Of a stretch of 64,000 nt of DNA, positions 3,327-57,573 are shown piece by piece (position 1 is the stretch's first letter; every line of letters starts with the position of its first letter). A model generated the notes under the pieces. That model was not told the DNA's origin. It did not search any database and saw nothing but the letters and a program-made list of their open reading frames with translations. The position numbers and the translations under genes were made by a program. This DNA is from an uncultured Candidatus Saccharibacteria bacterium (GTDB taxonomy: Bacteria; Patescibacteriota; Minisyncoccia; Phycocordibacterales; UBA9973): the NCBI GenBank assembly GCA_964404925.1, contig CAYOLW010000001.1, positions 2,106 through 66,105 of the forward strand. Reading direction: 5' to 3'.

Positions 3327-3330
3327 ACTA

Positions 3331-3358
3331 AAAACCCCGGGCAACCGGGGTTTTTAGT
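3331..3358 (+). terminator. Rho-independent terminator.
   Basis: The hairpin aaaaccccgg-gcaa-ccggggtttt is followed by a T-run. Confidence 0.7.
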
Positions 3359-3376
3359 TTGTGCTATATTTAGTGG

Positions 3377-39019: not shown

Positions 39020-39098
39020 CATCCTTGACTAAAAGCACAGAAGTTGTATAAATGGTTTAAGTAAACCCGCTCTTTTCACTTTTTAAACCACCTCCAAC

Positions 39099-39455
39099 AT
39101 GGAAGACTTCATTAACTATCTTCACGAACTTTTTCTGCCGGTGTGTGGCCCATGGTTAGAAGATGTTATACCTTTGCTTGGTTACGTTAATTCTATCGCT
39201 AATGTAATTTACTTATACTTTGGTTTTAGATATACAAAGACACCAAGGCTTGCAGATATTTTTGGAACAGGTGTTTGGTTGCCGGTTCTAATAATTGTTT
39301 GTTTGTCGGGCGTTTATTATAAAAATGCTCACCAGACTATATCTTTTTTTATTGCGTTAGTGTTTTTGTTAACACACCTTATTTTGTTAGTTGTTCGTTA
39401 TAAAAAACGAAAAAAGGCCATAAAACACAGAACCAAAAAACAAAAGAAAAAGTAA
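39099..39455 (+). CDS. Small membrane protein (118 aa) with a basic C-tail.
   Basis: There are three hydrophobic segments. The ORF is followed by a terminator. Confidence 0.4.
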   Translation: MEDFINYLHELFLPVCGPWLEDVIPLLGYVNSIANVIYLYFGFRYTKTPRLADIFGTGVWLPVLIIVCLSGVYYKNAHQTISFFIALVFLLTHLILLVVRYKKRKKAIKHRTKKQKKK

Positions 39456-39458
39456 GTC

Positions 39459-39487
39459 AGCCCTGCACCCCACAGGGCTTTTTTATT
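39459..39487 (+). terminator. Rho-independent terminator.
   Basis: The hairpin agccctg-cacccca-cagggct is followed by a T-run. Confidence 0.65.
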
Positions 39488-39564
39488 TGACAAATCTGTG
39501 TTTTCTTGTAGAGTGAATTTTGAACCCTAATTCTTCGTTAATTTCATAAAAAATCTCTGATAAT

Positions 39565-40605
39565 ATGAAAAGATATCTCTATTTTTTAGCTTTCTGCTTT
39601 TTTTTAAGCGGATGCAGCTTTGGAGATATCGATTCTCCAGAAGCTGCTTACTTTTTTGTCAAAGGATGGATGCCAAATACATTAATGGCATTTCTTTTTT
39701 GTTTTGGAATGGCGATTATTATAGTCGCTACGTGGTCTTTATTTGTTAAGGGGATTGCTTTTTTATACCGTAATATACGGGATATAAAAAACTGGTTCTT
39801 GAACGGATGGAATTACTTTGTGATTGCTTGTATCTGTTTGTTTCTAACAACAATCAGGGACAAGTGGCCAGACTGGATTTGGGATTGGTATCAAGCCTCC
39901 CACCCGGTGTGGTTAACTGCCGAAAACAATATATTTGTTAATGATACAACCTATTCCATAGCTGGTATCGGTGAGATTCAGGAACAAACTATTGTGGACA
40001 TGTACTTGAAACGTTTGAGAGACAGCACTCAATCTGAATATGAGTATAACTCAGTCGTTAAACTTTTTAATGAACTGCAAGACACTCTGAAACTTAGAAC
40101 AGTGTTGTCTCTATACGAGCCAATAAATATTGAATGTGGAATGAACCCATTTCGTGTCCGTGATGACGGGCGTGCGGCGGGGCTTATTCAGTTCACAAAC
40201 GATGGACTTGAAAACATTTTTTATAAAGGCAAAAGGGTTACTCTAGATGCTGTGAAAGAGTGTTGTAAAGTTCGCGACATAGATATGATGTGTAGCATTA
40301 CAAAGATGTATTTGTTGAATGTATTTAAATCTAAAAAAGCATTCAGTAAATATATTGATGTGTATATTGCTATATTTGCACCGGCTCACGTGGGTAAAGA
40401 CGACAACTTTGTCTTGTACCAAGGCAAAAACAACGACGAATATTACTTGAATGCTGGTTTTGATGGCTGGTATTTAAGTAACGCTGGACAAATTCTTTAT
40501 GCCAAAAGTATGAAGGATTACAAGATCACAATCCTGGAAGTTAAACTAACTGTAATCGCAAAACGAGAACGGTTAATGAAACAATATCTAAAACAAAATC
40601 ATTAA
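39565..40605 (+). CDS. Lipoprotein/membrane protein with a lytic-transglycosylase (SLT)-like catalytic motif.
   Basis: The lipobox FLSGCSF is followed by transmembrane segments. ECGMNPFRVRDDGRAAGLIQF matches the SLT E-[SC]-G-x-N...A-x-G-L-[MI]-Q active-site pattern. Confidence 0.45.
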   Translation: MKRYLYFLAFCFFLSGCSFGDIDSPEAAYFFVKGWMPNTLMAFLFCFGMAIIIVATWSLFVKGIAFLYRNIRDIKNWFLNGWNYFVIACICLFLTTIRDKWPDWIWDWYQASHPVWLTAENNIFVNDTTYSIAGIGEIQEQTIVDMYLKRLRDSTQSEYEYNSVVKLFNELQDTLKLRTVLSLYEPINIECGMNPFRVRDDGRAAGLIQFTNDGLENIFYKGKRVTLDAVKECCKVRDIDMMCSITKMYLLNVFKSKKAFSKYIDVYIAIFAPAHVGKDDNFVLYQGKNNDEYYLNAGFDGWYLSNAGQILYAKSMKDYKITILEVKLTVIAKRERLMKQYLKQNH

Positions 40606-40617
40606 AATCACACCGCC

Positions 40618-41511
40618 ATGACAAAAAGATTTTTTTCATTGCTGACGTGCGTTTTATTGCTTTCAGTGGTAAACGCGCAAAAAAGAAACCCTGCCCAAGA
40701 GGAAAAGTTGGGAACACAAATTAACCCTGACCTAGTGTTGAACGATGTGGTTGCCACAATGGGCAACCGTGTTTTTCAGAAGCCAGAAGGGGATGTTTCC
40801 TTTGTTTTCTCAGGGCATGTATTGACCTATGTTGCCCGCGGGAACAAGGATTATGTTGATATTCTTTCCGCCTTAGGTGAGCCCAGAAAGTCCAAATATG
40901 GACCACTTAAAGGTATCTACATTGGTAAAGAATATGTAGCAGGCAGAAGTGTTGAACCAGGCAGAGACCCAGATCCACCAAGAAATCTTAAGACGAAAGA
41001 AGATAAGTATCGGTGGGCTATTACCAACAGCATTTCCAGGGCTGCAGATTATTCAGAAGCTAACAGTCCCGAAATATATCGCGAAGTAGGTTATACGTGG
41101 AGTGAATTCCTGCGCATGGTTATGCCATATATGGGCCTTGTTGTTATTCTGTTGTGTGTTTTGTGGTTATTCCACGACGGACTTGGAAGAGAGTTGGTAA
41201 AAAACTTGAGTTGGCGAAATTTCGGAGTTGGGAAAGGGATATTCTCTTTTTGGGTTGTTATAACAGTGATTTATGTTGTTACTTTGTTGTGTGTAGGTGC
41301 TGGACTTGTGATTAATGCCGGCCTTGCTTTTTTTGAAGGCTACACAAGCAGTGATAATATTTTATGGCCCGCTGCGCAATGTATCGGTATCACATACCTT
41401 GTTGGTATTGGTATTGATTGGCTTGTAAGTTCTGACAAGTACACCACATCAGTTAATCAAATGTGGCTGGCGCAAGCGTCAGGTCACGGCAAAGGACATG
41501 ATCACGATTAA
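40618..41511 (+). CDS. Secreted or membrane hypothetical protein (297 aa) with a C-terminal transmembrane cluster and a His-rich tail.
   Basis: The signal peptide is LLTCVLLLSVVNAQ. C-terminal hydrophobic helices are present, and the tail is GHGKGHDHD. Confidence 0.4.
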   Translation: MTKRFFSLLTCVLLLSVVNAQKRNPAQEEKLGTQINPDLVLNDVVATMGNRVFQKPEGDVSFVFSGHVLTYVARGNKDYVDILSALGEPRKSKYGPLKGIYIGKEYVAGRSVEPGRDPDPPRNLKTKEDKYRWAITNSISRAADYSEANSPEIYREVGYTWSEFLRMVMPYMGLVVILLCVLWLFHDGLGRELVKNLSWRNFGVGKGIFSFWVVITVIYVVTLLCVGAGLVINAGLAFFEGYTSSDNILWPAAQCIGITYLVGIGIDWLVSSDKYTTSVNQMWLAQASGHGKGHDHD

Positions 41512-41523
41512 AACAAAAACATT

Positions 41524-41937
41524 ATGTTGGTTCCAAGATTAGATAAATCAGCTAAAATAGCGCTCGCACTTCTTGCGCTGACCTGTACACTTATCACTAT
41601 TTTTCTACCAGAAGTCTGGTACGATTTATGGAGAATGGTGAAATTTGTAATTCACTATTTTTCTATTGTTGTGTTTTTTATTTCAATCGGCTTTGTTTTT
41701 TACATCAATAACGAAAGGAAAAAACACAAAGAAGCAGAAAAGGGTGAGGCGAAAACCATTGTCATTCCGCAAACGGTTCTCGAAAAAATAAAAATAACAC
41801 TTGCGGATTCAGTGATTGCTTGGGTTGTAATAGGGGTGATTGCATTTTTGCTTTTCACAATAACCAAAGAGGCCCCAGTACCCGGATTTAGGGATGCGAA
41901 CGGCAACAAAATTGAACAAACCATTATCAGAGATTGA
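41524..41937 (+). CDS. Hypothetical membrane protein (137 aa).
   Basis: Three hydrophobic helices are present. Confidence 0.4.
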   Translation: MLVPRLDKSAKIALALLALTCTLITIFLPEVWYDLWRMVKFVIHYFSIVVFFISIGFVFYINNERKKHKEAEKGEAKTIVIPQTVLEKIKITLADSVIAWVVIGVIAFLLFTITKEAPVPGFRDANGNKIEQTIIRD

Positions 41938-41992
41938 TTAAACCCAATACCCCCTAGGGTTTACCTATATGGATTATCAGGGGGAAATTACC

Positions 41993-42025
41993 AAACGGTA
42001 CTCGAACGAGTACCGTTTTTTTATT
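41993..42025 (+). terminator. Rho-independent terminator.
   Basis: The hairpin aaacggtactcg-aa-cgagtaccgttt is followed by a 7-T run. Confidence 0.7.
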
Positions 42026-42055
42026 GCCAAAATATTTGTGTTAATGTGGTAGAAT

Positions 42056-42568
42056 ATGGTTATGGAACCTGAGAATGTACAAGAATCAAAAGACGAGAAA
42101 TTAGAGAGGGAAGCCAAGCATTTGGTTCACCACGTGTTGGCTCACTCATACACTGTTTATTTCTTTGTGCTTTTGGTGGGGGTGGCGCTGGATATGCTTT
42201 TCCCAATTCGTGTTTTTCCTCAGTATTTAAATACTGTTGGCATAGTCATGCTTCTTTTGTCTTCGGCTCTTATAGTCTGGGCTCAGACAAGCTCCATCGG
42301 CAGTCAGCACCACAGAAACAACAAAGAAGACTTAACCCACGATCATTTCAGATGTGGGCCGTACCGCTATAGCCGCACACCGACACATTGGGGACTCTTT
42401 CTTTTGGTATTAGGTTTCGGACTTATAATAAATGCATTCTTTATTACGATTCTAACTATTGTTTCATTTTTTATTACTAAGGTCACATTGATAGCTAAAG
42501 AGGAGAAAATCCTAGAAAGCCGCTACGGTGAGCCGTACAAAGAGTATAAAAAATCAGTCAAACTGTAA
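42056..42568 (+). CDS. Polytopic membrane protein with a possible ICMT/phospholipid methyltransferase-like fold.
   Basis: Four to five transmembrane helices are present. The C-terminal-half motif GPYRYSRTPTHWG resembles the ICMT-family G-x-Y-x-x-x-R-H-P-x-Y motif. This identification is weak. Confidence 0.35.
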   Translation: MVMEPENVQESKDEKLEREAKHLVHHVLAHSYTVYFFVLLVGVALDMLFPIRVFPQYLNTVGIVMLLLSSALIVWAQTSSIGSQHHRNNKEDLTHDHFRCGPYRYSRTPTHWGLFLLVLGFGLIINAFFITILTIVSFFITKVTLIAKEEKILESRYGEPYKEYKKSVKL

Positions 42569-42572
42569 TCAA

Positions 42573-42675
42573 GCAGTATATAAACTTTTTTCCGGTACGA
42601 AATTTTTGAAGCTTAAAAATTTCTGAAGTTGGCTCGCCGTCGCTCGCCAAACCCCTTCAAAAAGTTATATACTGC
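42573..42675 (+). ncRNA. Structured intergenic element, copy B (~103 nt). It ends 7 nt before the likely holA start.
   Basis: The outer arms gcagtatataaactttttt and aaaaagttatatactgc have the same 1-nt bulge as copy A. The inner hairpin gaaattttt-gaagctt-aaaaatttc carries a compensatory g/c-to-a/t change relative to copy A. Confidence 0.5.
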
Positions 42676-42682
42676 TTTCATC

Positions 42683-43330
42683 ATGATTTACCTTTTCGCT
42701 GGCGATGATGCTGACAAGAAAATAGCCAACTATCAAAAGTTTATAACTTTACTGCCCAAGGAAACAGAAGTTTTTAAAATTGCCCGCAATAACTTCGATA
42801 AAGTAGAAATAGAAAGCTTTTTCTCTGGGTCTGGTCTTTTCTTTAAAACATGTGCGGTTGTATTTTCTAATATTTTAGAAAGGGAAGACGAAAGGGGTTT
42901 TGTTTTTTCTAAACTAAATGAATTAGCAGATTCACTGAACACTTTTGTTTTTATTGAAAGTAAATTATTAAAATCTGAACTTGATGAATTCAAAGAGGTT
43001 AAAGCTCAAATAAATTATTTTGAATTACCAAAAGAAAAACACGAAAAATATAATAATTTTATATTAGCCAATGACTTGGGTGCCAGGGATAAGAAAAGTC
43101 TCTGGTTGCATTATCGTGAGGCGGTTGATTTGGGTGTGGGGCTTGAAGAATTGGTTGGGGTAATGTTCTGGAAGGTTAAAGATATGCTCGTAAAGGGTTT
43201 GTACGGCAAGTGGCAAAAGGAGGAATTGCAAAAAGTGGGTGCCAGGTTATCCTACCTGTTGCCTGAGGCCCGTCGTGAAGGTCGCGACGCCGAAATAGCC
43301 TTCGAGCAGTTTATACTAGAAATTTTTTAA
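42683..43330 (+). CDS. holA: Short DNA polymerase III delta subunit (HolA)-like protein.
   Basis: I prefer the start MIYLFAGDD at 42683, because the listed 42629 start lies inside the structured element. The N-terminal YLF-G-D-D and the SGSGLFFKTCAVVF pattern resemble holA N-domains. The protein is about 216 aa, shorter than canonical. Confidence 0.5.
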   Translation: MIYLFAGDDADKKIANYQKFITLLPKETEVFKIARNNFDKVEIESFFSGSGLFFKTCAVVFSNILEREDERGFVFSKLNELADSLNTFVFIESKLLKSELDEFKEVKAQINYFELPKEKHEKYNNFILANDLGARDKKSLWLHYREAVDLGVGLEELVGVMFWKVKDMLVKGLYGKWQKEELQKVGARLSYLLPEARREGRDAEIAFEQFILEIF

Positions 43331-43403
43331 TGTGCGCCCAGCAGGAATCGAACCTGCGACCATCTCCTTAAAAGGGAGCTGCTCTACCAGCTGAGCTATG
43401 GGC
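43331..43403 (-). tRNA. tRNA-Lys (anticodon UUU).
   Basis: Manual fold gives acceptor GCGCCCA/UGGGCGC, a D-arm GCUC-AGCUGGUAGA-GAGC, an anticodon stem GCUCC/GGAGA with loop CUUUUAA, and a T-arm GCAGG-UUCGAUU-CCUGC. The sequence closely resembles E. coli tRNA-Lys. Confidence 0.85.
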
Positions 43404-43427
43404 GCGTAGTGTGATAATATAGTAAAC

Positions 43428-45545
43428 GTGTCGCAAAATCAAGGAAAGGTATTTAAATTAAAGAGTGAATACAAACCTGCCGGGGATCAACCCAAGGCTA
43501 TTTCTGAATTGGTGGATGGTCTTAAAAAAGGAATGAAAAAGCAAACCCTCCTCGGTGCCACCGGTACTGGTAAGACTTTCACCATGGCGAATGTTATTGC
43601 TGAGTATAATCGTCCAGCTTTGGTTATTGCGCACAATAAGACACTGGCTGCTCAGCTGGCCCAAGAGTTCAAAGCATTTTTTCCTGATGCTGCGGTGCAC
43701 TATTTTGTTTCTTATTACGATTACTATCAACCCGAAGCCTATATGCCAGTATCAGATACTTATATAGAAAAAGATGCTCAGATTAACAAAGAGATAGACC
43801 GTTTGCGACATGCTTCAACCCAGGCATTGCTTACTCGACCCGATACAATCATCGTTGCATCGGTATCTTGTATTTATGGTTTAGGTTCTCCCAAGGAGTA
43901 CGAAAAAGTAAATATGAAACTAGAGGCAGGAATGAAGATAGATAGAAACACTCTAATGAAGAGGTTGATTGAAATACATTTTTCAAGGACCAACGCAGAC
44001 CTTTTGCCTGGAACTTTTCGTGCGGTAGGGCCCAAGGTTGAATTTATGCCAGTTTCAGAGAATATCATGTACTCAATAGAGTTTGGTATTACTGGAGTGG
44101 ATAAAATATTTAAAATAGATCCAGTCTCGATGAGAATAGTCCAAGAAGAGAAGCACGTTTTTATTTTTCCAGCCAAGCACTTCATTACTGAAGATAAAAA
44201 AGTAAAAATTGCATTAGATAATATCAAAAAGGAACTAGCTCTTCAGTTAAAGAAATTTGAAAAGGAAGGAAAGTTGCTTGAAGCAGAGAGGATAAAAAGG
44301 AGGACTAACTACGATCTAGCTATGATAAAAGAAGTTGGCTACTGTAGCGGAATAGAAAATTACTCCAGGCATTTGTCTGGGAAAAAAGAAGGTGAGGCTC
44401 CAGACACACTCCTGTCGTATTTTCCAGATGGATTCCTGACAATTATCGATGAATCGCATGTGACCTTGCCGCAACTTTCTGGTATGTATGCTGGCGATGC
44501 TTCTCGCAAAACGACTTTAGTTGAATATGGATTTCGCCTACCTAGCGCAAAAGACAACCGACCACTTAAGTATCCTGAGTTTGGAGAAAGAATTAATTCG
44601 GTAATTTATACCAGTGCTACTCCTGGAGATTTAGAAAGAGAAGAAAGCGCCCAGATTGTAGAACAGATAATTCGTCCAACAGGGCTTGTTGATCCAGAAA
44701 CAATAATCCGTCCAGTTTCCGAGAAGGGTAAATATCCAGGCCAAATTCAAGATTTCATTATTGAAACAGAAGTTACTATAAAACGAGGTTATAGGGTTTT
44801 GGCGACAACCCTCACTAAGAAAATGGCTGAAGACTTATCTGTATACCTAAAGGATAAAAAAATTAAGGCTGAGTATCTACATAGTGATATTAAAACGATA
44901 GACAGAATAAAAATTCTTACAGAATTCCGTAAGGGTAAATTTGATGTATTAGTAGGTGTTAACTTGTTGCGTGAAGGTCTGGATTTGCCTGAGGTGGCAT
45001 TGATTGGAATTTTTGATGCTGACAAAGAAGGATTCTTGCGTAGCGAAACAGCATTGATTCAAACCATTGGCCGAGCTGCCCGTAATGCTGAGGGCCGAGT
45101 TATTTTATATGCTGATCAACTAACCGGATCTATGGACCGTGCACTAGGGGAGACTAAACGCCGTCGAGACATACAGATTGCTTATAATAAGAAGCACGGT
45201 ATAACACCCAAAACTATATTGAAAAACATTAAAGATATTACCGAAGAACTTGAAAGCGAGCACAGTAAGGCTGTAAATGCTGAACTTAATATAGACTTAG
45301 AGGTGTTCAAAAAAGCATATGCAAAAGAGTTGAAATTAGATAAAACAAAAATTACTAAACAAAAAGATGGAACAACAGAGGTAAAACTGCACATGTCAGA
45401 CGAAGAGCGCAGTGATTTGGTGTATGAAAAAATAATAAAAATAAAAGAGAAAGAAATGAATAAAGCAGTGAAGGAACTTGATTTTGAAACTGCCGCTATA
45501 TTGCGCGATGAAATTGTTGTTTTGCGCGAAAGGTCTAAAAAGTAA
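43428..45545 (+). CDS. uvrB: Excinuclease ABC subunit B.
   Basis: The N-terminus FKLKSEYKPAGDQPKAI and Walker A GATGTGKTFT are present. The helicase motif is DESH. The C-terminal UvrB/UvrC interaction helix is FETAAILRDEIVVLRE. Confidence 0.95.
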   Translation: MSQNQGKVFKLKSEYKPAGDQPKAISELVDGLKKGMKKQTLLGATGTGKTFTMANVIAEYNRPALVIAHNKTLAAQLAQEFKAFFPDAAVHYFVSYYDYYQPEAYMPVSDTYIEKDAQINKEIDRLRHASTQALLTRPDTIIVASVSCIYGLGSPKEYEKVNMKLEAGMKIDRNTLMKRLIEIHFSRTNADLLPGTFRAVGPKVEFMPVSENIMYSIEFGITGVDKIFKIDPVSMRIVQEEKHVFIFPAKHFITEDKKVKIALDNIKKELALQLKKFEKEGKLLEAERIKRRTNYDLAMIKEVGYCSGIENYSRHLSGKKEGEAPDTLLSYFPDGFLTIIDESHVTLPQLSGMYAGDASRKTTLVEYGFRLPSAKDNRPLKYPEFGERINSVIYTSATPGDLEREESAQIVEQIIRPTGLVDPETIIRPVSEKGKYPGQIQDFIIETEVTIKRGYRVLATTLTKKMAEDLSVYLKDKKIKAEYLHSDIKTIDRIKILTEFRKGKFDVLVGVNLLREGLDLPEVALIGIFDADKEGFLRSETALIQTIGRAARNAEGRVILYADQLTGSMDRALGETKRRRDIQIAYNKKHGITPKTILKNIKDITEELESEHSKAVNAELNIDLEVFKKAYAKELKLDKTKITKQKDGTTEVKLHMSDEERSDLVYEKIIKIKEKEMNKAVKELDFETAAILRDEIVVLRERSKK

Positions 45546-45562
45546 TTTGGTATACTAGTTAA

Positions 45563-46213
45563 ATGGCAAACATATTGGAAATAGGGGGCGGCAGGACTCC
45601 ATTTTTTATAAGGTACAAGATACCACTCAATAATGAAGATGTTTATATTGCGATAGACTCAGATAAGGAAAATATTCAAATGGCAGAATACTCTCTCCAT
45701 CATCATTTTAAAGAACCAAAACAATTATATAAAACACAAATTAAACAAGCGGATGCGTCCGTGGGCGTCCCTTATCCAGATAATTATTTTGATAAAGTTG
45801 TAATTAGTAACACTTTTTCTGCACCAATCCATAAAAATTGGGATGAGAATGGGTACACCGTAAAAACAAAAATTGGTGAAGAAATAGTTGAACGCAAAAT
45901 TCGTGAAGCATCTTCTAATGAAGACCCTTTTTATATTGAAAGAAGAAAAATGCTAGATGAGGCACTGAGGGTTCTGAAGACTGGGGGAGAATTGTTTATT
46001 TACACTGATTTGATAATCTACGGAATAGAATCATATGAGCGTTTAGTTAAAGAATTAAAAAACGATTATTTTATGTCTTATGTATTTGATACCAAAGAAG
46101 CTTCTAGGATAGACACCTTAAATAAGCAAAAATTAGTATCCAATGAATTTTGTTGTTGTTTCAGGGCGGAAGTTTTACCAAGGTCTGAGGTACACAGAGT
46201 TATTAAGGTTTAG
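45563..46213 (+). CDS. Putative class I SAM-dependent methyltransferase (216 aa).
   Basis: Motif I is LEIGGG, followed by an acidic post-I AIDSD and a motif II/III-like KVVISN ... LKTGGELFIY. The substrate is unknown. Confidence 0.45.
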   Translation: MANILEIGGGRTPFFIRYKIPLNNEDVYIAIDSDKENIQMAEYSLHHHFKEPKQLYKTQIKQADASVGVPYPDNYFDKVVISNTFSAPIHKNWDENGYTVKTKIGEEIVERKIREASSNEDPFYIERRKMLDEALRVLKTGGELFIYTDLIIYGIESYERLVKELKNDYFMSYVFDTKEASRIDTLNKQKLVSNEFCCCFRAEVLPRSEVHRVIKV

Positions 46214-46242
46214 CTTATAAAAAGACACCATATAATTGGCTT

Positions 46243-46270
46243 TGTCAATTAGGGTTGATTTTGCTATAAT
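46243..46270 (+). promoter_or_regulatory. Promoter for uvrA with TTGTCA, a 17-nt spacer and TATAAT.
   Basis: TTGTCA at 46243-46248 and TATAAT at 46265-46270, 9 nt before the ATG at 46280. Confidence 0.5.
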
Positions 46271-46279
46271 ACAACGTTC

Positions 46280-48910
46280 ATGAAAGATAAAAAATCAGAC
46301 AAACACGAATCTATAATTATTCGCGGAGCCAGGACACACAATCTGCGTAATATTGATGTGGAGATGCCCCGTAACAAAATGACGGTTATTACTGGTGTTT
46401 CAGGTTCTGGTAAATCTTCTCTTGCTTTTGACACAGTGTTTGCTGAGGGGCAGAGGAGGTATGTGGAATCACTTTCTTCATATGCTCGACAGTTTTTAAA
46501 CCAAATGCCCAAACCAGATGTGGACGAGATTACCGGACTTTCTCCAGCCATATCAATTGATCAAAAATCCAGGTCTAACAACCCTCGTTCAACAGTAGCA
46601 ACCATTACTGAAATCTACGACTACCTGCGTGTGATGTACGCCCGCATTGGGCACCCGCACTGTCCAGAGTGTGGTGAAGAAATCAAGAAACTGTCTAATG
46701 AAGAAATATTAAATTTTGTTTTAGATAAAGTTAATAGTTTCAGTAAGGCAAAAAAGGGCACCAAAAAAGTTCTAGATGTAGAGTGGAATGAAACTGAAAT
46801 AAGTATTTATGCACCTGTGGTCCGTGGACGTAAAGGGGAGTACTATCAGCTTTTATATGATTTGCTTGGTAAGGGTTTTACTCAAATACGATTAGATGGT
46901 GAGATAAAAAACTTGCGTGAACAAATAACCTTATCAAAAAACAAAGCCCACACCATTGAAGTTTTGGTTGATCACTTTGCATTGCATGAATTTATCGACA
47001 ATAAAGACACAGCCAAGACACGTCTGGCTGAAGCCTTGGAACGTGCCTTATTAGAATCTGACGGGTTAGTAAACATTAAAGTAAGCGATGAAGAGTTTCT
47101 AATGTCAGCTAAATTTGCTTGTAAAAATGATGGTTTTTCCTTTCCAGAAGTTGAACCAAGACTTTTCTCATTTAATTCACCGTATGGTGCCTGCCCAACA
47201 TGTAATGGACTTGGAACGAAATACTTTGGTGGGTTAGACCCATGTGATGATTGTCAGGGTGCACGACTAAGAAAAGAAGCGTTACATGTATTCTTGAGGT
47301 CGGATTCCCGAGGTTCGACCTCGGGAGGGGTAAATATTTTAGATTTAGCAAATCTCTCTGTTGCTGAGGCTTATGCTTTTTTTAAAAATTTAAAATTATC
47401 CGACAAAGAAAAAGAAATATCGCTACCGGTAGTTAGAGAAATAACTGACCGAATCAAATTCATGCTTGATGTAGGGCTCGACTACTTGCAACTTTCTCGT
47501 AAGGCCAACACCCTCTCCGGCGGGGAAGCACAGCGTATCAGGCTTGCTTCACAATTGGGCTCACGGCTCGTAGGTGCATTGTATGTGCTCGACGAGCCAA
47601 CGATTGGATTACACCAGCGGGATAATGATAGACTTATTAAAACATTGCTTGATTTGAGAGATTTAGGAAATACTATTTTAGTTGTTGAACATGATGAAGA
47701 CACTATCTATGCATCAGACTATATTGTGGATATTGGGCCTAAGGCTGGTGTGCATGGAGGGAATGTGGTTGTGTCTGGATATCTAGAAGATTTATTGACT
47801 GCTAAAAAGAACACCAGTGGATCACGTACCTTATCTTATTTGAGAGAAGAAACCAGAATAGAGATTCCTGAAAAGCGTCGTGATGCTAAAGGATGGCTCA
47901 AAATAGTTGGTGGAAAGGTTTTTAATATAGACAATATTAATGTTGAAATACCGCTAGGAGTAATGACTTGCATAACTGGAGTTTCAGGTAGTGGTAAGAG
48001 CTCTTTTATGTATGAAATTTTACACAAGAACCTGCAAGCTAGGTATGAAAGGAAATACCGTACAGCGGAAGTTTTTAACTGTTCTTCTTTTACTGGAACC
48101 GAGTATCTATCCAGAACTGTTCTGATAGATCAGTCACCAATTGGAAGAACACCTAGATCTAATATAGCTACTTATACCGGTACTTTTACGCACATCCGGG
48201 ATTTGTTTGCTGAGACCGAAGAATCAAAGTTCCGTGGTTGGAAGTCCAATAGATTTTCTTTTAATGTTAAAGGTGGTCGCTGTGAAGCTTGTGAAGGTAA
48301 TGGTGAGATAGCTGTTGAAATGCACTTTTTGCCAACAGTCTATGTAACCTGTGATGTATGCGGTGGAAAAAGATTTGATAAAGAAACACTGACAGTCAAA
48401 TATAAAAAGAAAAATATTTATGAAGTTTTGCGAATGACGGTAGAAGAAGGACTTGAATTCTTTAAGGATATTCCAGCTGTATATGATAGATTAGCTACAT
48501 TGATTGATGTTGGTTTAGGTTATCTAGAACTGGGTCAATCTGCCACAACCCTCTCCGGCGGGGAAGCACAGCGCGTAAAAATATCGAGTGAACTTTTTGA
48601 ATACCGAATGTCCCACCTACGTTCAGAGAAGACTATTTATTTATTGGACGAACCAACTGTAGGGTTACACTACGATGATGTAGCCAAACTACTAGAAGTA
48701 TTACAAAAGCTGGTTACCAAAGGAAACGCAGTTGTTTTAATTGAACATAATTTAGATATAATAAAAAGTGCTGATTATTTAATTGATTTTGGTCCCGAAG
48801 GTGGTACTGGTGGTGGTAATGTGGTTGCTCGTGGCACCCCAGAAGAGGTGGCTAATTCTCCTAAGAGTCATACAGGTAAATATTTGAAGAAAGTTTTACG
48901 CAAAAAATAA
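46280..48910 (+). CDS. uvrA: Excinuclease ABC subunit A.
   Basis: Two ABC modules are present: Walker A GVSGSGKSS twice, and signature LSGGEAQR twice. Zinc-finger cysteines are CPECGEE and CEACEG...CDVCGG. Confidence 0.95.
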   Translation: MKDKKSDKHESIIIRGARTHNLRNIDVEMPRNKMTVITGVSGSGKSSLAFDTVFAEGQRRYVESLSSYARQFLNQMPKPDVDEITGLSPAISIDQKSRSNNPRSTVATITEIYDYLRVMYARIGHPHCPECGEEIKKLSNEEILNFVLDKVNSFSKAKKGTKKVLDVEWNETEISIYAPVVRGRKGEYYQLLYDLLGKGFTQIRLDGEIKNLREQITLSKNKAHTIEVLVDHFALHEFIDNKDTAKTRLAEALERALLESDGLVNIKVSDEEFLMSAKFACKNDGFSFPEVEPRLFSFNSPYGACPTCNGLGTKYFGGLDPCDDCQGARLRKEALHVFLRSDSRGSTSGGVNILDLANLSVAEAYAFFKNLKLSDKEKEISLPVVREITDRIKFMLDVGLDYLQLSRKANTLSGGEAQRIRLASQLGSRLVGALYVLDEPTIGLHQRDNDRLIKTLLDLRDLGNTILVVEHDEDTIYASDYIVDIGPKAGVHGGNVVVSGYLEDLLTAKKNTSGSRTLSYLREETRIEIPEKRRDAKGWLKIVGGKVFNIDNINVEIPLGVMTCITGVSGSGKSSFMYEILHKNLQARYERKYRTAEVFNCSSFTGTEYLSRTVLIDQSPIGRTPRSNIATYTGTFTHIRDLFAETEESKFRGWKSNRFSFNVKGGRCEACEGNGEIAVEMHFLPTVYVTCDVCGGKRFDKETLTVKYKKKNIYEVLRMTVEEGLEFFKDIPAVYDRLATLIDVGLGYLELGQSATTLSGGEAQRVKISSELFEYRMSHLRSEKTIYLLDEPTVGLHYDDVAKLLEVLQKLVTKGNAVVLIEHNLDIIKSADYLIDFGPEGGTGGGNVVARGTPEEVANSPKSHTGKYLKKVLRKK
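47297..47327 (+). repeat. GC-rich palindromic in-frame element within uvrA, encoding ...RSDSRGSTSGG....
   Basis: The sequence is gaggtcggattcccgaggttcgacctcgggag, with arms cccgagg/cctcggg and gaggtcg/cgacctc. Its core matches the uvrC copies. Confidence 0.5.
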
Positions 48911-50203
48911 ATGAAACTAGAAAGTTTTAAAAAATTAAATTTACCGGAAAAACCAGGGGTTTATTTTTTCTTGGGTTATGAAAAATCGGGGTTGAACCCC
49001 GGGAATTCTAGGGGTTCAACCCCTGAAATATCTGGAAACGTACTTTACATCGGCAAGGCAACCAGTTTGCGTGACCGAGTTCGGAGTTATTTTTCTAAAG
49101 ATCTTATTGAAACTCGCGGTCCACTTTTAGTGGATATGGTTTGGAAGGCTACTGACATTAAATGGCAGGAAACAGAAAGTGTACTCGAAGCCCTAATCCT
49201 TGAAGCTAATTTAATAAAGAAACATCAGCCGTATTACAATACCAAAGAAAAAGACGACAAAAGCTTTAATTATGTTTGTATTACTTCTGAAAAAAGAATA
49301 CGTGTTATAAGAGGTAAGGATTTAAAACAAACAAAAGAAAAGTTCAAAAATACATTTGGTCCATATACTAACGGAGGACAACTGCGTGAAGCGTTAAAAA
49401 TAATTCGAAAGTTCTTCCCATTCATAGAAGACCGAAAGGGAACTAAAGGCAAAGAAGAATTTTACCGTCAGATAAAATTGATGCCCGAGAACATGAAAGA
49501 CAACACTAAAAATATTCGTAATATAATTTACTTCTTTGAAGGTAAGAAGAAAAAGATTATTAGCGGGCTAGTTCGAGAAATGAAGTCTTTGGCTAAAACA
49601 AAAAAATTTGAAGAAGCAAATGAAATAAAGAAAAAGATTTTTGCCCTAAATCATATTAATGACATTGCTTTGATTAAAAACGACTTGGCGGGCGGGAAGA
49701 GGTTGGACCTCGGGGGTTCTAGAGGTCCAACCTCAAAGAGCCATCAAACATTTCGTATTGAAGCCTATGATATAGCCCATATGGCTGGCAGGAACATGGT
49801 GGGCGTAATGACAGTGGTGGAAAATGGAGAAATAAATAAAAGAGAGTATAAGAAATTTAAAATCAAAACCCAATCTAATGCTAACGACACAGGTGCACTA
49901 ACCGAGGTATTGGAGAGGAGGTTTGGCCACCTTGAGTGGCAATTACCTAATCTGATTGTGGTTGATGGCGGAAAAGCTCAGATAAATTTTGCCGAGAAGG
50001 TTCTACAAAGAATGAATATACAAATACCAATAGTATCTGTCTTGAAAGACGAAAGGCATAGACCCAAAAACATTTTAGGTGACAAAGATTTAGCTAGAAA
50101 GTATGAGAGAGAAATACTACTGGCCAATGCTGAGGCTCACAGGTTCTCTATTGGTTATCATAAACAAATGCGGAATAAAAACTTTTTACCCAATGCAAAG
50201 TAA
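48911..50203 (+). CDS. uvrC: Excinuclease ABC subunit C (short form, 430 aa). It has a GIY-YIG nuclease and a UvrC middle/RNase H-like domain. The C-terminal HhH region appears absent.
   Basis: The GIY-YIG region is PGVYFFLGY...VLYIGKATSLRDRVRSYF, interrupted by a ~14-aa insertion. The gene directly follows uvrA. Confidence 0.8.
   Translation: MKLESFKKLNLPEKPGVYFFLGYEKSGLNPGNSRGSTPEISGNVLYIGKATSLRDRVRSYFSKDLIETRGPLLVDMVWKATDIKWQETESVLEALILEANLIKKHQPYYNTKEKDDKSFNYVCITSEKRIRVIRGKDLKQTKEKFKNTFGPYTNGGQLREALKIIRKFFPFIEDRKGTKGKEEFYRQIKLMPENMKDNTKNIRNIIYFFEGKKKKIISGLVREMKSLAKTKKFEEANEIKKKIFALNHINDIALIKNDLAGGKRLDLGGSRGPTSKSHQTFRIEAYDIAHMAGRNMVGVMTVVENGEINKREYKKFKIKTQSNANDTGALTEVLERRFGHLEWQLPNLIVVDGGKAQINFAEKVLQRMNIQIPIVSVLKDERHRPKNILGDKDLARKYEREILLANAEAHRFSIGYHKQMRNKNFLPNAK
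48988..49023 (+). repeat. GC-rich palindromic in-frame element within the uvrC GIY-YIG motif, encoding SGLNPGNSRGSTPE.
   Basis: The arms ggggttgaacccc and ggggttcaacccc are exact reverse complements, and the loop is gggaattcta. Confidence 0.6.
49699..49734 (+). repeat. Second GC-rich palindromic in-frame element within uvrC, encoding LDLGGSRGPTSK.
   Basis: The arms gaggttggacctc and gaggtccaacctc are exact reverse complements. The loop gggggttcta is nearly identical to the loop of the first uvrC copy. Confidence 0.6.
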
Positions 50204-50669
50204 ACAAAATATTTTAATATTAAACGACATTCGTGGAGCTGAAAATGTGGGTGCTATGTTTCGCACCGCTGATGCAGCCGGGGTCCATAAAATTTATTTG
50301 GTTGGCTATACGCCAACACCTATCGATAGATTTGGACGCAAACAAAAGTCTATAGCTAAGACAGCCCTGGGTGCTGAAGATTATATACCCTGGGAACAGG
50401 TAAAAAGTATAAATACACTTATTAATAAACTCCACAAAAACGGTTTCCAAATTATTGCCATAGAACAAGATGAAAATTCAGTAAATTACAAAAAAGTAAA
50501 ATTGAAAGACAAGAACGCTATAATAATGGGTAGCGAGGTAGATGGTGTAGCTAAAAATGTTTTAGCTAAATGTGACGTGATTGCCGAGATACCCATGCAA
50601 GGTAAAAAAGAGTCCTTGAACGTTTCTGTGGCTTGTGGGGTGGCGTTATACGGTTTATTGGGTAAATAG
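50193..50669 (+). CDS. SpoU/TrmH-family RNA 2'-O-methyltransferase (TrmL-like, about 158 aa).
   Basis: I prefer the start at 50193 (MQSKQNILIL), because the listed 50103 start overlaps uvrC. The protein has the SPOUT motifs NVGAMFRTADAAG, IMGSEVDGV and the C-terminal ESLNVSVACGVALY. Confidence 0.75.
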   Translation: MQSKQNILILNDIRGAENVGAMFRTADAAGVHKIYLVGYTPTPIDRFGRKQKSIAKTALGAEDYIPWEQVKSINTLINKLHKNGFQIIAIEQDENSVNYKKVKLKDKNAIIMGSEVDGVAKNVLAKCDVIAEIPMQGKKESLNVSVACGVALYGLLGK

Positions 50670-50670
50670 T

Positions 50671-50823
50671 TTACCAATACGACTCACCAGTGTTAAGCGG
50701 TGTTGGTGGTTTGATAAATGGACCACCACCGCCTTCAGACTCGTACCTTTGTGGGCCGCCTGTCCAGAGCCAAAAAAACCAAAGCAGTATTACAATTCCA
50801 ATAAATCCTAAAATTATTCTCAT
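50671..50823 (-). CDS. Possible 50-aa single-TM, Gly/Pro-rich membrane peptide (unlisted).
   Basis: Manual translation gives MRIILGFIGIVILLWFFWLWTGGPQRYESEGGGGPFIKPPTPLNTGESYW. No homology is recognised. Confidence 0.25.
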   Translation of the reverse strand: MRIILGFIGIVILLWFFWLWTGGPQRYESEGGGGPFIKPPTPLNTGESYW

Positions 50824-50897
50824 CCCAGTACTAAAAATTTAAATGTTAATTTTAATTTATTTACCCGTAATCAAAATTTTAGTACGGGACAAGTAAA

Positions 50898-51743
50898 TTA
50901 AATTTGATGTTTGTCGCAAAAATGTGCGCTACGGCCATTTACTACTTTTCGTATTATAACACCATGGCAGGACTTTTTCTTGCATTTTTCACCACGAAGA
51001 CCATAGACAGTGTGTTCTGACTGGAAATTTCCTTTTTCGCCATAGACATTAATATAATCTGACATTGAATCACCTCCAAAATCGATACCTTTATTTAAGA
51101 GTATTTTAGTGGATTCATAAATTTTTCGCAGTTCTTTGTTATTAATGTTTCGCACTAGTCTCTCTGGGTGTACATCGGCGCGCCACAGTACCTCATCTGA
51201 ATATATATTACCAACACCAACAAGTATACTTTGATCCATTAAAACTGTTTTTATCTTGCCGTTTGGTTTCTTGGTTAATCTTTCTTTGAATGTTTCAAGT
51301 GTGAAGCCTTTTTCTAGTGGCTCAGGACCGAGGTCTTTCAAGTGTTTAGACTCGTGCATATTTTTAGTATCAAGTAGAGTCATCTTGCCAAATTTGCGCG
51401 GATCAGAAAAAGCGAGTTTTTTACCACCGGATAAGGTAAACAAGACGTGAACATATTTATCGTGATTTTTGACGAGCATTCGCCCTGTCATTTTCATATG
51501 TACTAAAATCGTTTTATTCCCCGACAGGTGTATTAGAATATTTTTGGCTCGACGTTTAACTTCTGTTATCTTTTTACCAACTACTTCCTTTTTAAAAATA
51601 TTGAAAAATGCGGGTTCGGATACCGTGTCTTTTTTCCTTTTGTCTTTGGTTCTAAGGTCAGTCCAAACATCAAGGATTTTATGTCCTACGATTTCTTTCT
51701 GTAACCCTAAAACGGTGGTTTCTACCTCTGGTAACTCGGGCAT
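50898..51743 (-). CDS. mutM: Formamidopyrimidine-DNA glycosylase (Fpg/MutM; the Nei family is not excluded).
   Basis: The N-terminus is MPELPEVETT, with catalytic Pro2 and Glu3. The H2TH region is present. The C-terminal zinc finger is CKKKSC...CDKHQ. Confidence 0.9.
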   Translation of the reverse strand: MPELPEVETTVLGLQKEIVGHKILDVWTDLRTKDKRKKDTVSEPAFFNIFKKEVVGKKITEVKRRAKNILIHLSGNKTILVHMKMTGRMLVKNHDKYVHVLFTLSGGKKLAFSDPRKFGKMTLLDTKNMHESKHLKDLGPEPLEKGFTLETFKERLTKKPNGKIKTVLMDQSILVGVGNIYSDEVLWRADVHPERLVRNINNKELRKIYESTKILLNKGIDFGGDSMSDYINVYGEKGNFQSEHTVYGLRGEKCKKKSCHGVIIRKVVNGRSAHFCDKHQI

Positions 51744-52306
51744 TATTTATTTCCTAAGAATTTTAAAGCTTCCTTTATTTTTGTATTTGTGTCGGCCTCA
51801 GGGTTTAGCTGTTTTAAAATATCACGTACTTCATTTTCTCGATAGCCTATTGCTTTGAGTGCCTCAAGCACATCAAGATTGTTGCTATAACCATCTGCTA
51901 ATGTTTCTTTGCCTAATTTATCTCGAAGTTCAAGGATTATTTTTTCAGCAGTTTTTTTACCAATACCAGATATTTTATTTAAATAAGCCAAGTCTCCAGT
52001 TTTAATAGATCGAGTAAGGGTCTCCACTCCTGAGACTGAGAGTATGCCCATTGCACCCTTAGGTCCAATACCAGACACGCCAAGTAGTAGTTCAAATAAA
52101 GACAATTCTTTTAAATCCTTAAATCCATAAAGGTCGAAAGCATCTTCTCTTACGTGTGTATGTAAATACAAAAATGTTTCTAATTCATTGCCTATACCTA
52201 GCAACAACTCTGGCAACACCGAAATACGGTAGCCAATACCATTATTTTCTACCAAAATATGCTTTTCCCCCCTATGTATTATCTTGCCGCGGATGCTTCC
52301 AAACAT
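51743..52306 (-). CDS. ruvA: Holliday junction DNA helicase subunit RuvA.
   Basis: The N-terminus is MFGSIRGKI, followed by an OB fold and the tandem HhH LLGVSGIGPKGAMGIL ... ISGIGKKTAEKIILEL. The gene is separated from ruvBC by about 18 kb. Confidence 0.85.
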   Translation of the reverse strand: MFGSIRGKIIHRGEKHILVENNGIGYRISVLPELLLGIGNELETFLYLHTHVREDAFDLYGFKDLKELSLFELLLGVSGIGPKGAMGILSVSGVETLTRSIKTGDLAYLNKISGIGKKTAEKIILELRDKLGKETLADGYSNNLDVLEALKAIGYRENEVRDILKQLNPEADTNTKIKEALKFLGNK

Positions 52307-52634: not shown

Positions 52635-52655
52635 TACACGAGATAAACATACTTA

Positions 52656-52684
52656 AAACCCGCGAAAGCGGGTTTTCTTTTAGC
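52656..52684 (+). terminator. Rho-independent terminator after rpsT.
   Basis: The hairpin aaaacccgc-gaaa-gcgggtttt is followed by a T-run. Confidence 0.75.
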
Positions 52685-55302: not shown

Positions 55303-57573
55303 ATGGCTAACAAAATACTAAAAATTAAAGGAATGCATTGTGCAAGTTGTGCCGCTATCATCACCAACAAAGTTTCAAAGCTGCCAGGAGTAGATAGTAT
55401 CAATGTTAATCCCGCAACAGAAAAAGCGATGGTGTCTTTTAACGCAGAGGTGGTTTCTGTGCCTCAAATGAATAGTGAGATTGAGAAACTTGGGTATGCA
55501 TTTCTTGATGAAGACGAATCAAAAACAATAGAAGACCACAGTATGCATACAGGGATGAACCAATCCAAAGATGAAAAGATGAAAGAATTACTGGACATGA
55601 AAACAAAGACCCAATTTGTTCTGCCCGTCGCCCTCCTCGTTTTTGTTCTTATGATGTGGGACATTGGTGCCAAGTTGGTCACTTCCATCCCAAACATTCC
55701 TTTACCAATGTCTATCTTCAACACCATTTCTATGGTGCTTGCGAGTATTGTAATTTTTTGGATTGGGCAACCTTTTTTGAAAGGAGTAGTGAGGTTTTTT
55801 AAGTATCGTGTTGCTAACATGGATACCTTGATAGGTATTGGAACTCTTGTTGCGTATCTTTATAGTATTAGCATTACATTATTTCCGCAGATTAGAATCG
55901 CTTTAAATCTTCCGGAATTTACATATTTTGATGTTACTATCGTTGTTATTGGTTTTGTAATGCTCGGCAAATACTTGGAAGCACGATCAAAACTTCGTAC
56001 CGGGGAAGCGATAGAAAAACTTCTGGGCCTTCAGGCAAAAACAGCATTACTCTGGCGCGATGGCGTAGAGGTTGAAGTTCCTGTAAATGAAGTGCAAATA
56101 GGAGACACTCTTATTGTAAAGCCAGGGTCAAAAATACCGGTTGACGGAGTTATTGTTGAAGGATACTCATCTCTCGATGAGTCTATGATTACAGGAGAAT
56201 CCATTCCTGTAGATAAAAAAGTAGGGGACTTGGTGGTGGGGGCAACAATTAATAAACAAGGCAATTTCAAATTTAAAGCTACAAAAGTTGGGTCTGATAC
56301 CGTGCTTGCTCAGATAATAAAAATGGTGGAAGAAGCACAGGGTTCCCGTGCCCCTATTCAGGCTTTAGCTGATAAAATATCTAGTGTATTTGTACCAGTT
56401 GTCCTGGTTATAGCAATACTGGCACTAGTCACTTGGCTTACTATTGGTGCGTCGTTTCTAGGATTCTCGAGTGCTCTTTCTTACGGCATCCTTTCTTTTG
56501 TCGGTGTTTTAGTCATTGCTTGTCCTTGTGCATTAGGACTTGCTACTCCAACCGCGATTATTGTTGGAGTGGGTAAAGGGGCAGAATACGGCATCCTTAT
56601 TCGAAACGCTGAAGCGCTAGAGAAGCTCAGTCACGTAGATACTATAGTGCTTGATAAGACAGGAACAATTACCAAAGGGAAACCAGAAGTTACAGATGTC
56701 ATCTCTCTTGATTCTGGATGGACAGAAAAAGACTTGCTTCTTGTAAGTGCAAGTATAGAAAAACTTTCAGAGCATCCTCTGGCAGACGCTGTTGTTGCTA
56801 AAGCCAAAGAGCAAAAAATTGAACTTGAAACAGTTGCAAATTTTCAAGCCTTTGAAGGGGTTGGGGTAGAAGGTACGATCAATAATAAGCATATATCAAT
56901 CCATAAACCATCCGGAGATAATTCAAAAGAAAGCAAGATTAAGTATCTGCAAGAGCAAGGAAAAACTGTTGTGATTGTAGAAGTTGATAAAAAACAGATT
57001 GGGCTTATTGCGCTTTCAGATACATTAAAGGAAGAGTCAAAAGAGGCCATTGTGAAACTTCATGCTAGAAATATTAAAGTAATAATGTTGACTGGTGATA
57101 ACCATTTAGCAGCAAATTACATTGCAAAACTTGCAGGCATTGATGAGGTCATTGCAGAGGTAATGTCACAAGAAAAGAGTGGCAAAATAAAGGAATTACA
57201 AGACAAGGGTGCTATTGTGGCAATGGTTGGTGACGGCATCAACGATGCCCCAGCGCTGGTACAAGCCGATGTGGGTATAGCTATGGGCACTGGCACAGAC
57301 GTAGCCATAGAGTCCGCAGGAATAACCCTCCTGGGTGGTGATGTTTCAAAAATCGCCAAGACGATAAAGTTGTCCAAGATTACCATGAGGGGAATAAAAC
57401 AAAACCTGTTCTGGGCCTTCGTTTTCAATGTTGTTGGCATACCACTTGCAGCCGGGCTATTCTATCCTATTTTTGGCTGGTTCTTGTCTCCAGTTTTTGC
57501 AGGGATGGCTATGGCGATGTCTTCCGTATCTGTGGTTGGAAACTCTCTTAGAATTAAAAGTATTAAATTATAA
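55303..57573 (+). CDS. copA: Copper-translocating P1B-type ATPase CopA.
   Basis: The HMA motif is GMHCASCA. The membrane motif is CPC, the phosphorylation site is DKTGTIT, and the hinge GDGINDAP is present. Confidence 0.95.

Follow-up and report, generated by a model that had tools for sequence, protein, structure and literature searches.

Why should a GC-rich palindrome of 36 nucleotides (nt) lie in frame inside the GIY-YIG nuclease motif of an excinuclease gene? The question is raised by the uvrC gene of an uncultured Candidatus Saccharibacteria bacterium, carried on the 64,000-nt stretch analysed here (contig CAYOLW010000001.1, positions 2,106 to 66,105; hereafter the window), in which the palindrome, element B, occupies positions 48988-49023. 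With a probability of roughly two in three, element B belongs to a family of very short hairpin repeats, dispersed among Patescibacteria, that resemble repetitive extragenic palindromic (REP) sequences, are selfish, and are tolerated by their host proteins as disordered loops. The observation itself is real, and the core of the preliminary description of this locus, namely that a palindromic micro-element from a repeat family lies here in frame, proved right. As had been described, the two arms are exact reverse complements within an AT-rich gene, the G+C content of the surrounding DNA being about 37%; the whole 36-mer is 89% self-complementary. Its boundaries fall between AATC and GGGG on the left and between CCCC and TGAA on the right. 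Each strand has a single stop-free frame across the element. In the 430-aa open reading frame (ORF) of uvrC, which begins directly behind the uvrA stop codon, the element is in frame and reads (S)GLNPGNSRGSTP, giving SGLNPGNSRGSTPE across the insert.

Allowing up to two mismatches, the 13-mer of element B has three matches in the window against 0.41 expected, a number equalled in none of 100 shuffles, and the degenerate motif proposed in the preliminary description has six matches at three loci against 0.14 expected. None of 200 shuffles folded as stably as the element does as RNA (-28.7 kcal/mol, z = -5.5); the DNA fold gives -16.3 (z -5.7). A chance origin of element B is excluded by these shuffling controls. 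With 9 bp of stem and 50% G+C as the lower limits, the perfect hairpins of the window are restricted to element B, two related copies (A and C) and a hairpin at 52655-52676 (AAAACCCGCGAAAGCGGGTTTT), which has the look of an intrinsic terminator and is unrelated to the element family. The exact UvrC protein of the window was also found on a Logan contig from a single run, SRR12762285, possibly not independent of the source of the window.

Alignment with homologues confirms the proposed insertion point between the GIY and YIG parts of the motif. The nearest UvrC homologues, P0001 and P0002 (P numbers denote homologue proteins, and L numbers loci from other genomes or contigs), are 80-82% identical to the window protein and have four residues between the two strands (FFRRGQEILYIGKA and FFLQEEKILYIGKA, respectively), against 22 in the window. 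The extra length relative to these closest homologues is thus 18 residues, of which the palindrome itself codes 12; the preliminary estimate of about 14 added residues was right as to an insertion and wrong as to its length. Element B is missing from P0001 and P0002 and also from P0027, so the residues in question are not shared by homologues, and the peptide signature of the family occurs, at any site, in four of the 120 closest UvrC homologues. All three window copies are absent from L001, a syntenic 71-kb contig whose UvrA and UvrC are 87% and 80% identical to those of the window. Judged from these alignments, element B is an insertion, placed where the loop of many homologues varies in length. 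An AlphaFold2 model built on 44 homologues gives a predicted local distance difference test (pLDDT) score below 50 to residues 26-41, between the strands at 15-21 and 44-50, and again to residues 250-279, which contain element C, with high values for the flanking strands. From these scores both inserts are predicted to be disordered loops at permissive positions.

Some further features of the UvrC proteins were recorded. By its UvrC homologues the organism falls within Patescibacteria, in the group of Paceibacteria or Nomurabacteria-like lineages. The GIY-YIG domain of the window protein gives only a faint Pfam match. UvrC is short in this lineage (394-476 aa in the window and its homologues), and precomputed Pfam annotation of these proteins comprises the GIY-YIG, UVR and RNase H-like endonuclease domains only, the C-terminal helix-hairpin-helix domain not being listed. 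At the place of element C, the UvrC linkers of L001 (gene 3262-4530), L070 (173-1468) and L071 (1781-3088) carry a different insert of about 25 residues, longer than C, which lies between an HIND(I/V) motif and FRIEAYD and reads YALRRS(R/H)SSLEGQ...SEDS...; its ends appear partly inverted-repeated (ATGCTCTCCG...GAGCAT). Other odd inserts among UvrC homologues read DLPAGRQE, KPARNATHSVAGGE and FGPAPFFGRNFGDKVGPS, and there may be several other palindromic insert families in these bacteria.

At least four related elements had been claimed for the window, all in frame and encoding a common G-[SP]-T core. Position-weight scanning and searches by pattern recover three: B, element C in the UvrC linker, and a shortened copy, element A, in uvrA (Table 1). 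A candidate fourth copy at 43482 was rejected: shuffled sequences score as high, and the peptide it codes is PAGDQPKAI of UvrB. Element C reads GGKRLDLGGSRGPTSKS, and its flanks, GGCGGGAA...AAAGAGCC, supply a GGC/GCC lower stem with which the fold reaches -32.1 kcal/mol (z -5.8). In other genomes the same flanks, in opposite orientation, are found around copies in ComEC, LeuRS and RecJ genes. The first arm of element A is missing 9 nt when compared with full copies at the same UvrA position elsewhere; L015, L065 and L048 have full 36-nt copies at this site, and L001 has none. All three window copies are read in the same frame and give ...SRG[SP]T..., so the common core stands for the window. 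It does not stand for the family, in which three frames are used, and is a by-product of the shared frame rather than a conserved feature.

Table 1. Elements, host genes and genes with empty sites in the 64,000-nt window (positions are those of the window)
Feature	Positions	Strand	Description
Element B	48988-49023	+	36-nt nested palindrome in uvrC; left arm GGGGTTGAACCCC (48988-49000), loop GGGAATTCTA (49001-49010), right arm GGGGTTCAACCCC (49011-49023)
Element C	49691-49742	+	core 49699-49734 = GAGGTTGGACCTC / GGGGGTTCTA / GAGGTCCAACCTC; UvrC linker, before endonuclease domain
Element A	47296-47326	+	damaged copy in uvrA; GAGGTCG-GATTCCC-GAGGTTCGACCTC-GGGA; reads RSDSRGSTSG
UvrC variable loop	48974-49039	+	residues 22-43, GYEKSGLNPGNSRGSTPEISGN; between GIY and YIG beta-strands; from alignments and codon-level comparison
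uvrA host gene	46280-48910	+	876 aa; carries A; 83-87% identical to UvrA of L001, L015, L048, L065
uvrC host gene	48911-50203	+	430 aa; GIY-YIG, UVR and RNase H-like endonuclease domains; carries B and C
uvrB	43428-45545		empty for the element here, host in other genomes
polA	36560-39019		empty for the element here, host in other genomes
P-type ATPase gene	55303-57573		empty for the element here, host in other genomes

The unit of the family is a 13-nt near-palindrome, GRGGTYSRACCYC, whose usual form is an inverted doublet with a 10-nt spacer, 36 nt in total; some sub-families have about 8 nt of extra flank per side. A scan of one genome per species with the pattern GRGGTYSRACCYC-N10-GRGGTYSRACCYC found 62 stretches, against about 0.27 expected by chance under uniform base composition, and metagenome contigs contributed at least 120 more stretches. 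Further copies therefore exist well beyond the part of the source genome that was scanned, which is the 64-kb window. Judging by record titles, the reference genomes with the doublet are nearly all Patescibacteria, the lineages named being Paceibacterota, Saccharibacteria and Uhr-, Falkow-, Lipton-, Yanofsky-, Azam-, Nomura-, Portnoy- and Nealsonbacteria; the few matches in GC-rich or other genomes are possibly due to chance or unrelated. Each reference genome has one to four strict doublets, with four in JAGOSH01, and the family is widespread yet sporadic. Its copies are found in NCBI, JGI, ENA and Logan assemblies, showing that it is no assembly artefact. A phage origin was rejected, as a scan of viral contigs for the doublet gave no matches. 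An origin from a tRNA T-arm or another known RNA was also rejected: Rfam 15 identified two tRNAs in the window, neither overlapping an element, and nothing overlapping the elements in 20 further loci.

Copy statistics were based on 121 distinct copies among the matches listed, from loci with less than 55% G+C. Within ORFs of at least 150 aa there are 82 of these copies, distributed over the codon phases as 34/30/18, and 33 have no long ORF around them. The use of all three phases indicates that the DNA is conserved and not the peptide, and a conserved peptide motif was ruled out on this basis. At the positions left free by the search pattern, the two arms are complementary to each other in 120, 110 and 119 of the 121 copies (50% expected), the figure of 110 being that for the central base, whereas self-complementarity within one arm is seen in 95. 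The maintained relation is thus the long inverted repeat, even though each arm is nearly a palindrome. Flanks and loop ends are complementary in 34-51% of cases against 25% from base composition, and some copies are perfect palindromes of 52-58 nt. Neighbouring 13-mers are spaced by 23 nt in 49 pairs, a spacing in part imposed by the search pattern. One sub-family has asymmetric shared flanks, GGCTCYTY...TTCCCGCC, in RecJ, ComEC and LeuRS genes, and in opposite orientation around element C of the window and the GIY-YIG-site copy of L023; that RecJ, ComEC, LeuRS and UvrC genes share such non-palindromic flanks shows directly that a repeat of about 52 nt is dispersed among them. The folds of family copies are very stable, with z about -5.5 to -6.4.

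The scans also brought up related structures. A conserved intergenic element of about 145 nt (L081:4398-4542; also in L085, L094, L122, L125, L161, L171, L186, L188 and L191) contains the doublet GAGGTTCAACCTC aagatgtccc GAGGTTGAACCTC as one of three branches of a structure closed by the terminal pairing GGGACTTACGCA...TGCGTAAG(T/C)CC. Its copies are near-identical within unrelated flanks, five of the contigs coming from a single metagenome; it folds at -49 kcal/mol (z -4.2), has no Rfam match, and could be an unannotated noncoding RNA or a larger miniature inverted-repeat transposable element (MITE) holding the doublet. Some GC-rich contigs carry tandem arrays that repeat every 23 nt and are composed of a 13-mer palindrome and a 10-nt spacer (L009:1-128; L073:7-65 and 7483-7541), with the units GGGGTCCGACCCC gaccttctat and GGGGTCGAACCCC tattagaggg. 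The L073 arrays lie at both ends of the contig, and these arrays may be a different repeat class or a circular-contig overlap. An intergenic sub-family occurs on AT-rich contigs (L079:957, 6376 and 11926; L030:83 and 5167; L113:3198), L030 being titled Saccharibacteria and L079 and L113 being metagenome contigs; in this sub-family GTA precedes some units, producing GTAGGGGTC... and with it the GTAG tag of classical REPs. A doublet at L129:3393-3428 sits 16 nt upstream of a transfer-messenger RNA gene (3444-3857).

Occupied and empty sites can be compared directly, as the uvrB, polA and P-type ATPase genes of the window are empty where other genomes carry a copy. Subtraction of the 36-mer from uvrB of L014 leaves exactly the length of the window gene, and polA of L172 differs from that of the window by 12 codons; no target duplication is visible at either site. 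Filled-empty comparisons for the uvrB, polA and P-type ATPase genes show gaps of 12, 14, 12 and 10 residues. Sites A, B and the C-terminal uvrC site show net length differences of 27, 54 and 39 nt between genomes too divergent for duplication calls, and a clean difference of 36 nt is confined to the uvrB and polA sites. The lack of a target duplication argues against a MITE of the DDE type. It is in keeping with routes that leave none, such as template switching or the action of Y1/HUH enzymes on single-stranded hairpins.

Orthologous copies show how the arms evolve. The GIY-YIG site is filled in L003 and L023 and holds a variant in L069, the C-terminal uvrC site is filled in L004 and L023, and the uvrA site of element A is filled in L003, L015, L065 and L048. 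At the GIY-YIG site the arms are GGGGTTGAACCCC in the window, GGGGTTGGACCCC in L003, GAGGTCGGACCTC in L023 and, within arms of 17 nt, GACGTTGGACGTC in L069, and all four copies are perfect inverted repeats with a 10-nt loop. We infer from arms that drift yet stay complementary that they undergo concerted evolution by hairpin-templated correction. The L069 copy (1119-1162) has the full arms GTCGGACGTTGGACGTC / GACGTCCAACGTCCGAC and folds at -34.9 kcal/mol; compared with GAGGT...ACCTC, its third base pair is altered in all four half-arms. At the uvrA site the arms are identical at 25-26 of 26 positions between genomes, whereas flanking third-codon positions are just 33-47% identical, and at one uvrB site the 36-mer is identical at 36 of 36 positions while adjoining codons differ. 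Copies also decay: the orthologue of element C in L069 has lost its complementarity, and the damaged element A sits in an intact gene.

The genes that host the family were typed by Pfam on the host ORFs, the numbers of sites being taken from a reading of the alignments; automatic clustering of sites gives lower values for UvrC (3), ComEC (1) and ATP synthase gamma (1). Hosts in DNA repair, recombination, topology and uptake are UvrA (2 sites), UvrB (2), UvrC (3-4), UvrD, PolA, RecJ, RecG, TopA, a Xer-type recombinase (2), ComEC (2) and a nuclease. Among tRNA and RNA enzymes they are TsaD (at least 4 sites), TGT, MiaA, TrmD, the CCA-adding enzyme, RNase J, an RNA methyltransferase and five aminoacyl-tRNA synthetases, and the remainder includes ATP synthase gamma (2), enolase, phosphoglycerate mutase, SecA, a P-type ATPase, glycosyltransferases, TPR proteins and others. 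UvrABC account for 22 of 99 intragenic copies among those listed. By distinct sites they account for 7 of about 47, against about 0.6-1% of the genome (binomial P = 4e-7, with gene length as the only expectation and kinship among genomes ignored). The bias towards DNA metabolism, noted from the window copies, is real; an exclusive bias was ruled out by the host typing of metagenome copies, with tRNA enzymes, enolase and others among the hosts.

Full-text literature searches returned nothing on in-frame palindromes or MITEs in Patescibacteria or the candidate phyla radiation. The element had been likened to the palindromic elements of Rickettsia (RPEs) and to Correia-like MITEs, though much shorter. 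The in-frame palindrome and the far smaller size hold good; kinship with Correia elements and MITEs does not, and the closest known kind is the REP-type short stem-loop repeat rather than a Correia element or another terminal-repeat MITE. REPs are short stem-loops tagged with GTAG or CGTC, among which dimers predominate; some are intragenic, many of these being dimers or groups coding 20-30 aa, and their hosts include many proteins of DNA synthesis and repair (excinuclease ABC, UvrD, PolA, RecBCD) as well as aminoacyl-tRNA synthetases and tRNA pseudouridine synthases (Di Nocera et al. 2013, PMC3733652). The same survey, whose phyla do not include Patescibacteria, assigns RPE-4 and RPE-6 of Rickettsia to the CGTC REPs (PMC3733652). 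The present family shares with REPs a short palindrome as its unit (stems of 5-13 bp), the predominance of inverted dimers, dispersed copies of which some lie in frame in genes and code short peptides, a host spectrum of excinuclease ABC, UvrD, PolA, aminoacyl-tRNA synthetases and tRNA-modifying enzymes, and the lack of a visible target duplication at a filled/empty site. RAYT (REP-associated tyrosine transposase) and IS200-type enzymes leave no target duplication, and Bertels and Rainey reportedly described in 2011 how REP doublets (REPINs) are mobilised by RAYT transposases. Unlike REPs, the family is untagged: the arm-edge count found GTAG at 13 of 484 edges and CGTC at 0 of 484, and a tag was rejected on this count. 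REPs are mostly extragenic, whereas about two thirds of the family copies (82/121) are intragenic; the family also differs in its low copy number per genome, and no RAYT gene turned up near its copies in two tests, both weak. The family is best filed as an untagged, mostly intragenic variant of REP-type hairpin repeats. What had been proposed as a new family of mobile micro-elements is therefore a dispersed in-frame family, and not a new category, intragenic REPs having already been described (PMC3733652).

Other known systems are more distant. Like RPEs, the family consists of palindromic, probably selfish repeats in frame in unrelated housekeeping genes, in a reduced AT-rich genome, where they are predicted to add extra protein segments. 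RPEs were reportedly described by Ogata et al. in 2000. The family differs from them in its length of 36-52 nt, against about 150 bp for classical RPEs (PMC10969869), in its Patescibacterial hosts and in its core sequence; moreover, RPE families code conserved peptides, whereas the present family is read in three frames. With Correia elements and other MITEs it has in common that it is small, non-autonomous, dispersed and of inverted symmetry; unlike Correia elements and DDE MITEs, it shows no duplication where filled and empty sites are compared, the difference being exactly 36 nt. Correia elements, which lie mostly between genes, exceed 100 bp by a good margin, end in long inverted repeats and duplicate a TA target. 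A length of 204 bp and transcripts that can form hairpins cleaved by RNase III are reported for the Correia element (PMC10969869). Certain mitochondrial palindromes are alike in being short and GC-rich in AT-rich genomes, able to lie in frame in protein genes, polymorphic for presence or absence, and nested or double-hairpin in form. They include the GC-rich palindromic clusters of yeast mitochondria and the double-hairpin elements of fungal mitochondria. Coding palindromes occur in mitochondrial genes of Nematomorpha (PMC6649704). These palindromes belong to organelles and have unrelated sequences, and the analogy is one of resemblance only, with no homology.

If element B is indeed a REP-like selfish repeat, it would have entered pre-existing genes as an exact 36-nt block without target-site duplication, as judged from one site. 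This points to movement through a single-stranded hairpin intermediate, by means of either a trans-acting HUH/Y1-type enzyme or template switching during replication, and makes a cut-and-paste DDE transposase a less likely mover. The locations of the copies suggest that the intragenic ones that survive are those in frame, free of stops and in permissive surface loops. In uvrC the intact frame suggests that transcription and translation most likely run through the element and add its residues to the protein, the insert being predicted to stretch the GIY-YIG turn into a disordered loop rich in Gly, Ser, Arg and Pro; it is probably dispensable for UvrC, given the relatives without it. Quasipalindrome template switching, which is well established as a mutational mechanism (PMC7202029), would use one arm as the template for the other and either spread a mismatch to both arms or repair it, and recognition of the arms by a trans-acting protein perhaps adds to their maintenance. 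The mRNA hairpin of about -29 kcal/mol, 78 nt into the ORF, would be incidental and is probably not why the element exists, though it may retard translation or serve as a mark on the mRNA.

Several points weigh against this reading. The excess of nucleotide-excision-repair genes among the hosts is left unexplained by a purely selfish model, and the near-identical arms at the uvrA and uvrB sites could equally mean purifying selection on a functional hairpin. No RAYT or IS200 partner was found: a tblastn search with an IS200 TnpA probe had no match in 1.33 Mb of element-bearing loci, and no transposase family recurs among 91 ORFs beside intergenic copies, although both are weak tests. Strict copies are few in each reference genome, a recent burst was not seen, no insertion or excision event was observed at the strain level, and translation of the insert is deduced from the intact frame.

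The main rival takes the hairpin to be a selected nucleic-acid signal, either an mRNA stem-loop (a translational pause, an RNase III site or a stability element) or, in the DNA, a cruciform or a site bound by protein. Such a signal would mark genes for repair and RNA enzymes and be kept by purifying selection, mobility accounting only for its origin. Near-identical arms at orthologous sites amid saturated synonymous positions, compensatory arm changes coordinated across all four half-arms, the very stable folds, the strong over-representation of excision-repair genes and the recurrence of the same bias in unrelated REP families of other phyla (PMC3733652) all speak for such a signal. Its absence from a relative as close as L001, which has none of the three window copies, speaks against it, as does the rarity of the family signature among the closest UvrC homologues. 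So do decayed and truncated copies that persist in intact genes, positions scattered within genes from codon 26 to the C-terminus, hosts as heterogeneous in function as enolase, ATP synthase gamma, P-type ATPase, glycosyltransferases and TPR proteins, and the third of the copies that are intergenic. A conserved mRNA hairpin, which the preliminary description offered as an alternative, is weakened by the close relatives without the element and by the one decayed orthologue, and we consider a selected signal unlikely overall. A more specific version, in which a DNA or mRNA hairpin signal connects uvrA/B/C/D, polA, recJ and recG, together with certain genes for tRNA enzymes, with one shared factor in Patescibacteria, is decidedly unlikely. 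If true, it would explain the perfect arms amid saturated flanks, the coordinated half-arm changes and the repair-gene bias that recurs with unrelated REPs; in a wider form, a mechanistic feedback between hairpin repeats and the excision-repair machinery would make uvr genes a preferred home for such repeats in several phyla.

It is very improbable that the element serves as a site for a DNA-binding or recombination machinery, for which its 13-10-13 layout resembles the core of a tyrosine-recombinase site, or as a DNA-uptake signal like the neisserial DNA uptake sequence (DUS). Palindromic 13-mers at a fixed spacing of 23 nt, hosts that include Xer-type recombinase and ComEC genes, and the repair-gene bias are in keeping with this idea; neisserial DUS are likewise biased to genome-maintenance genes. 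The density, however, is far too low for uptake, with five 13-mers in the 64-kb window and the few strict doublets of the reference genomes, where DUS and other uptake signal sequences occur roughly once per kb. The complementarity of the central base between arms in most copies indicates a hairpin or inverted duplication and not two equivalent sites, and most relatives lack the element altogether. Hardly credible, finally, is an ordinary lineage-specific loop whose coding happens to be palindromic, or an assembly artefact. The insert is in frame, at a position of variable-length loops in many homologues, as an ordinary loop would be; but homologues lack it, the same DNA recurs in dozens of unrelated genes in all three frames, and the shuffling controls exclude chance. 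Against an artefact stand the copies in assemblies from four sources, including the exact UvrC on the Logan contig.

A REP-like selfish family of this kind would extend in-frame selfish palindromes, known in Rickettsia, some Proteobacteria and Verrucomicrobia, to a large uncultured phylum of small genomes, with a 36-nt (12-codon) unit far below that of RPEs. For annotation, it would explain a class of odd low-complexity inserts in Patescibacterial proteins that are able to degrade domain detection. Orthologous copies with differing yet perfect arms offer a natural system in which to separate selection on the hairpin from self-correction by template switching. The family is also an independent case of repeats concentrating in nucleotide-excision-repair genes, which makes that pattern harder to dismiss and easier to test.

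Other features of the window were noted. The region 36560-52306 is a dense cluster of DNA-repair genes, with polA, uvrB, uvrA, uvrC, fpg (50898-51743, minus strand) and ruvA (51743-52306, minus strand). A uracil-DNA glycosylase gene at 62762-63427 was assigned by synteny with L001, in which the repair cluster runs on with an HhH-GPD glycosylase, RadC and a MutH-like gene. A 911-aa ORF (14314-17049) has a GC-rich 3' end (16962-17047) in which, the frame being read by eye, GGN glycine and CAT/CAC histidine codons are repeated (GGTGGAGGAGGTGGAGGGGGAGGACATGGTGGC...). The G+C content of the window peaks at 0.449 (12001-14000) inside an ORF of 1180 aa (10697-14239), which contains an exact repeat of 26 residues, ETVTNSCQSSSGGPTPPSCFAVPQTQ, at 13043 and 13217, 174 nt apart.

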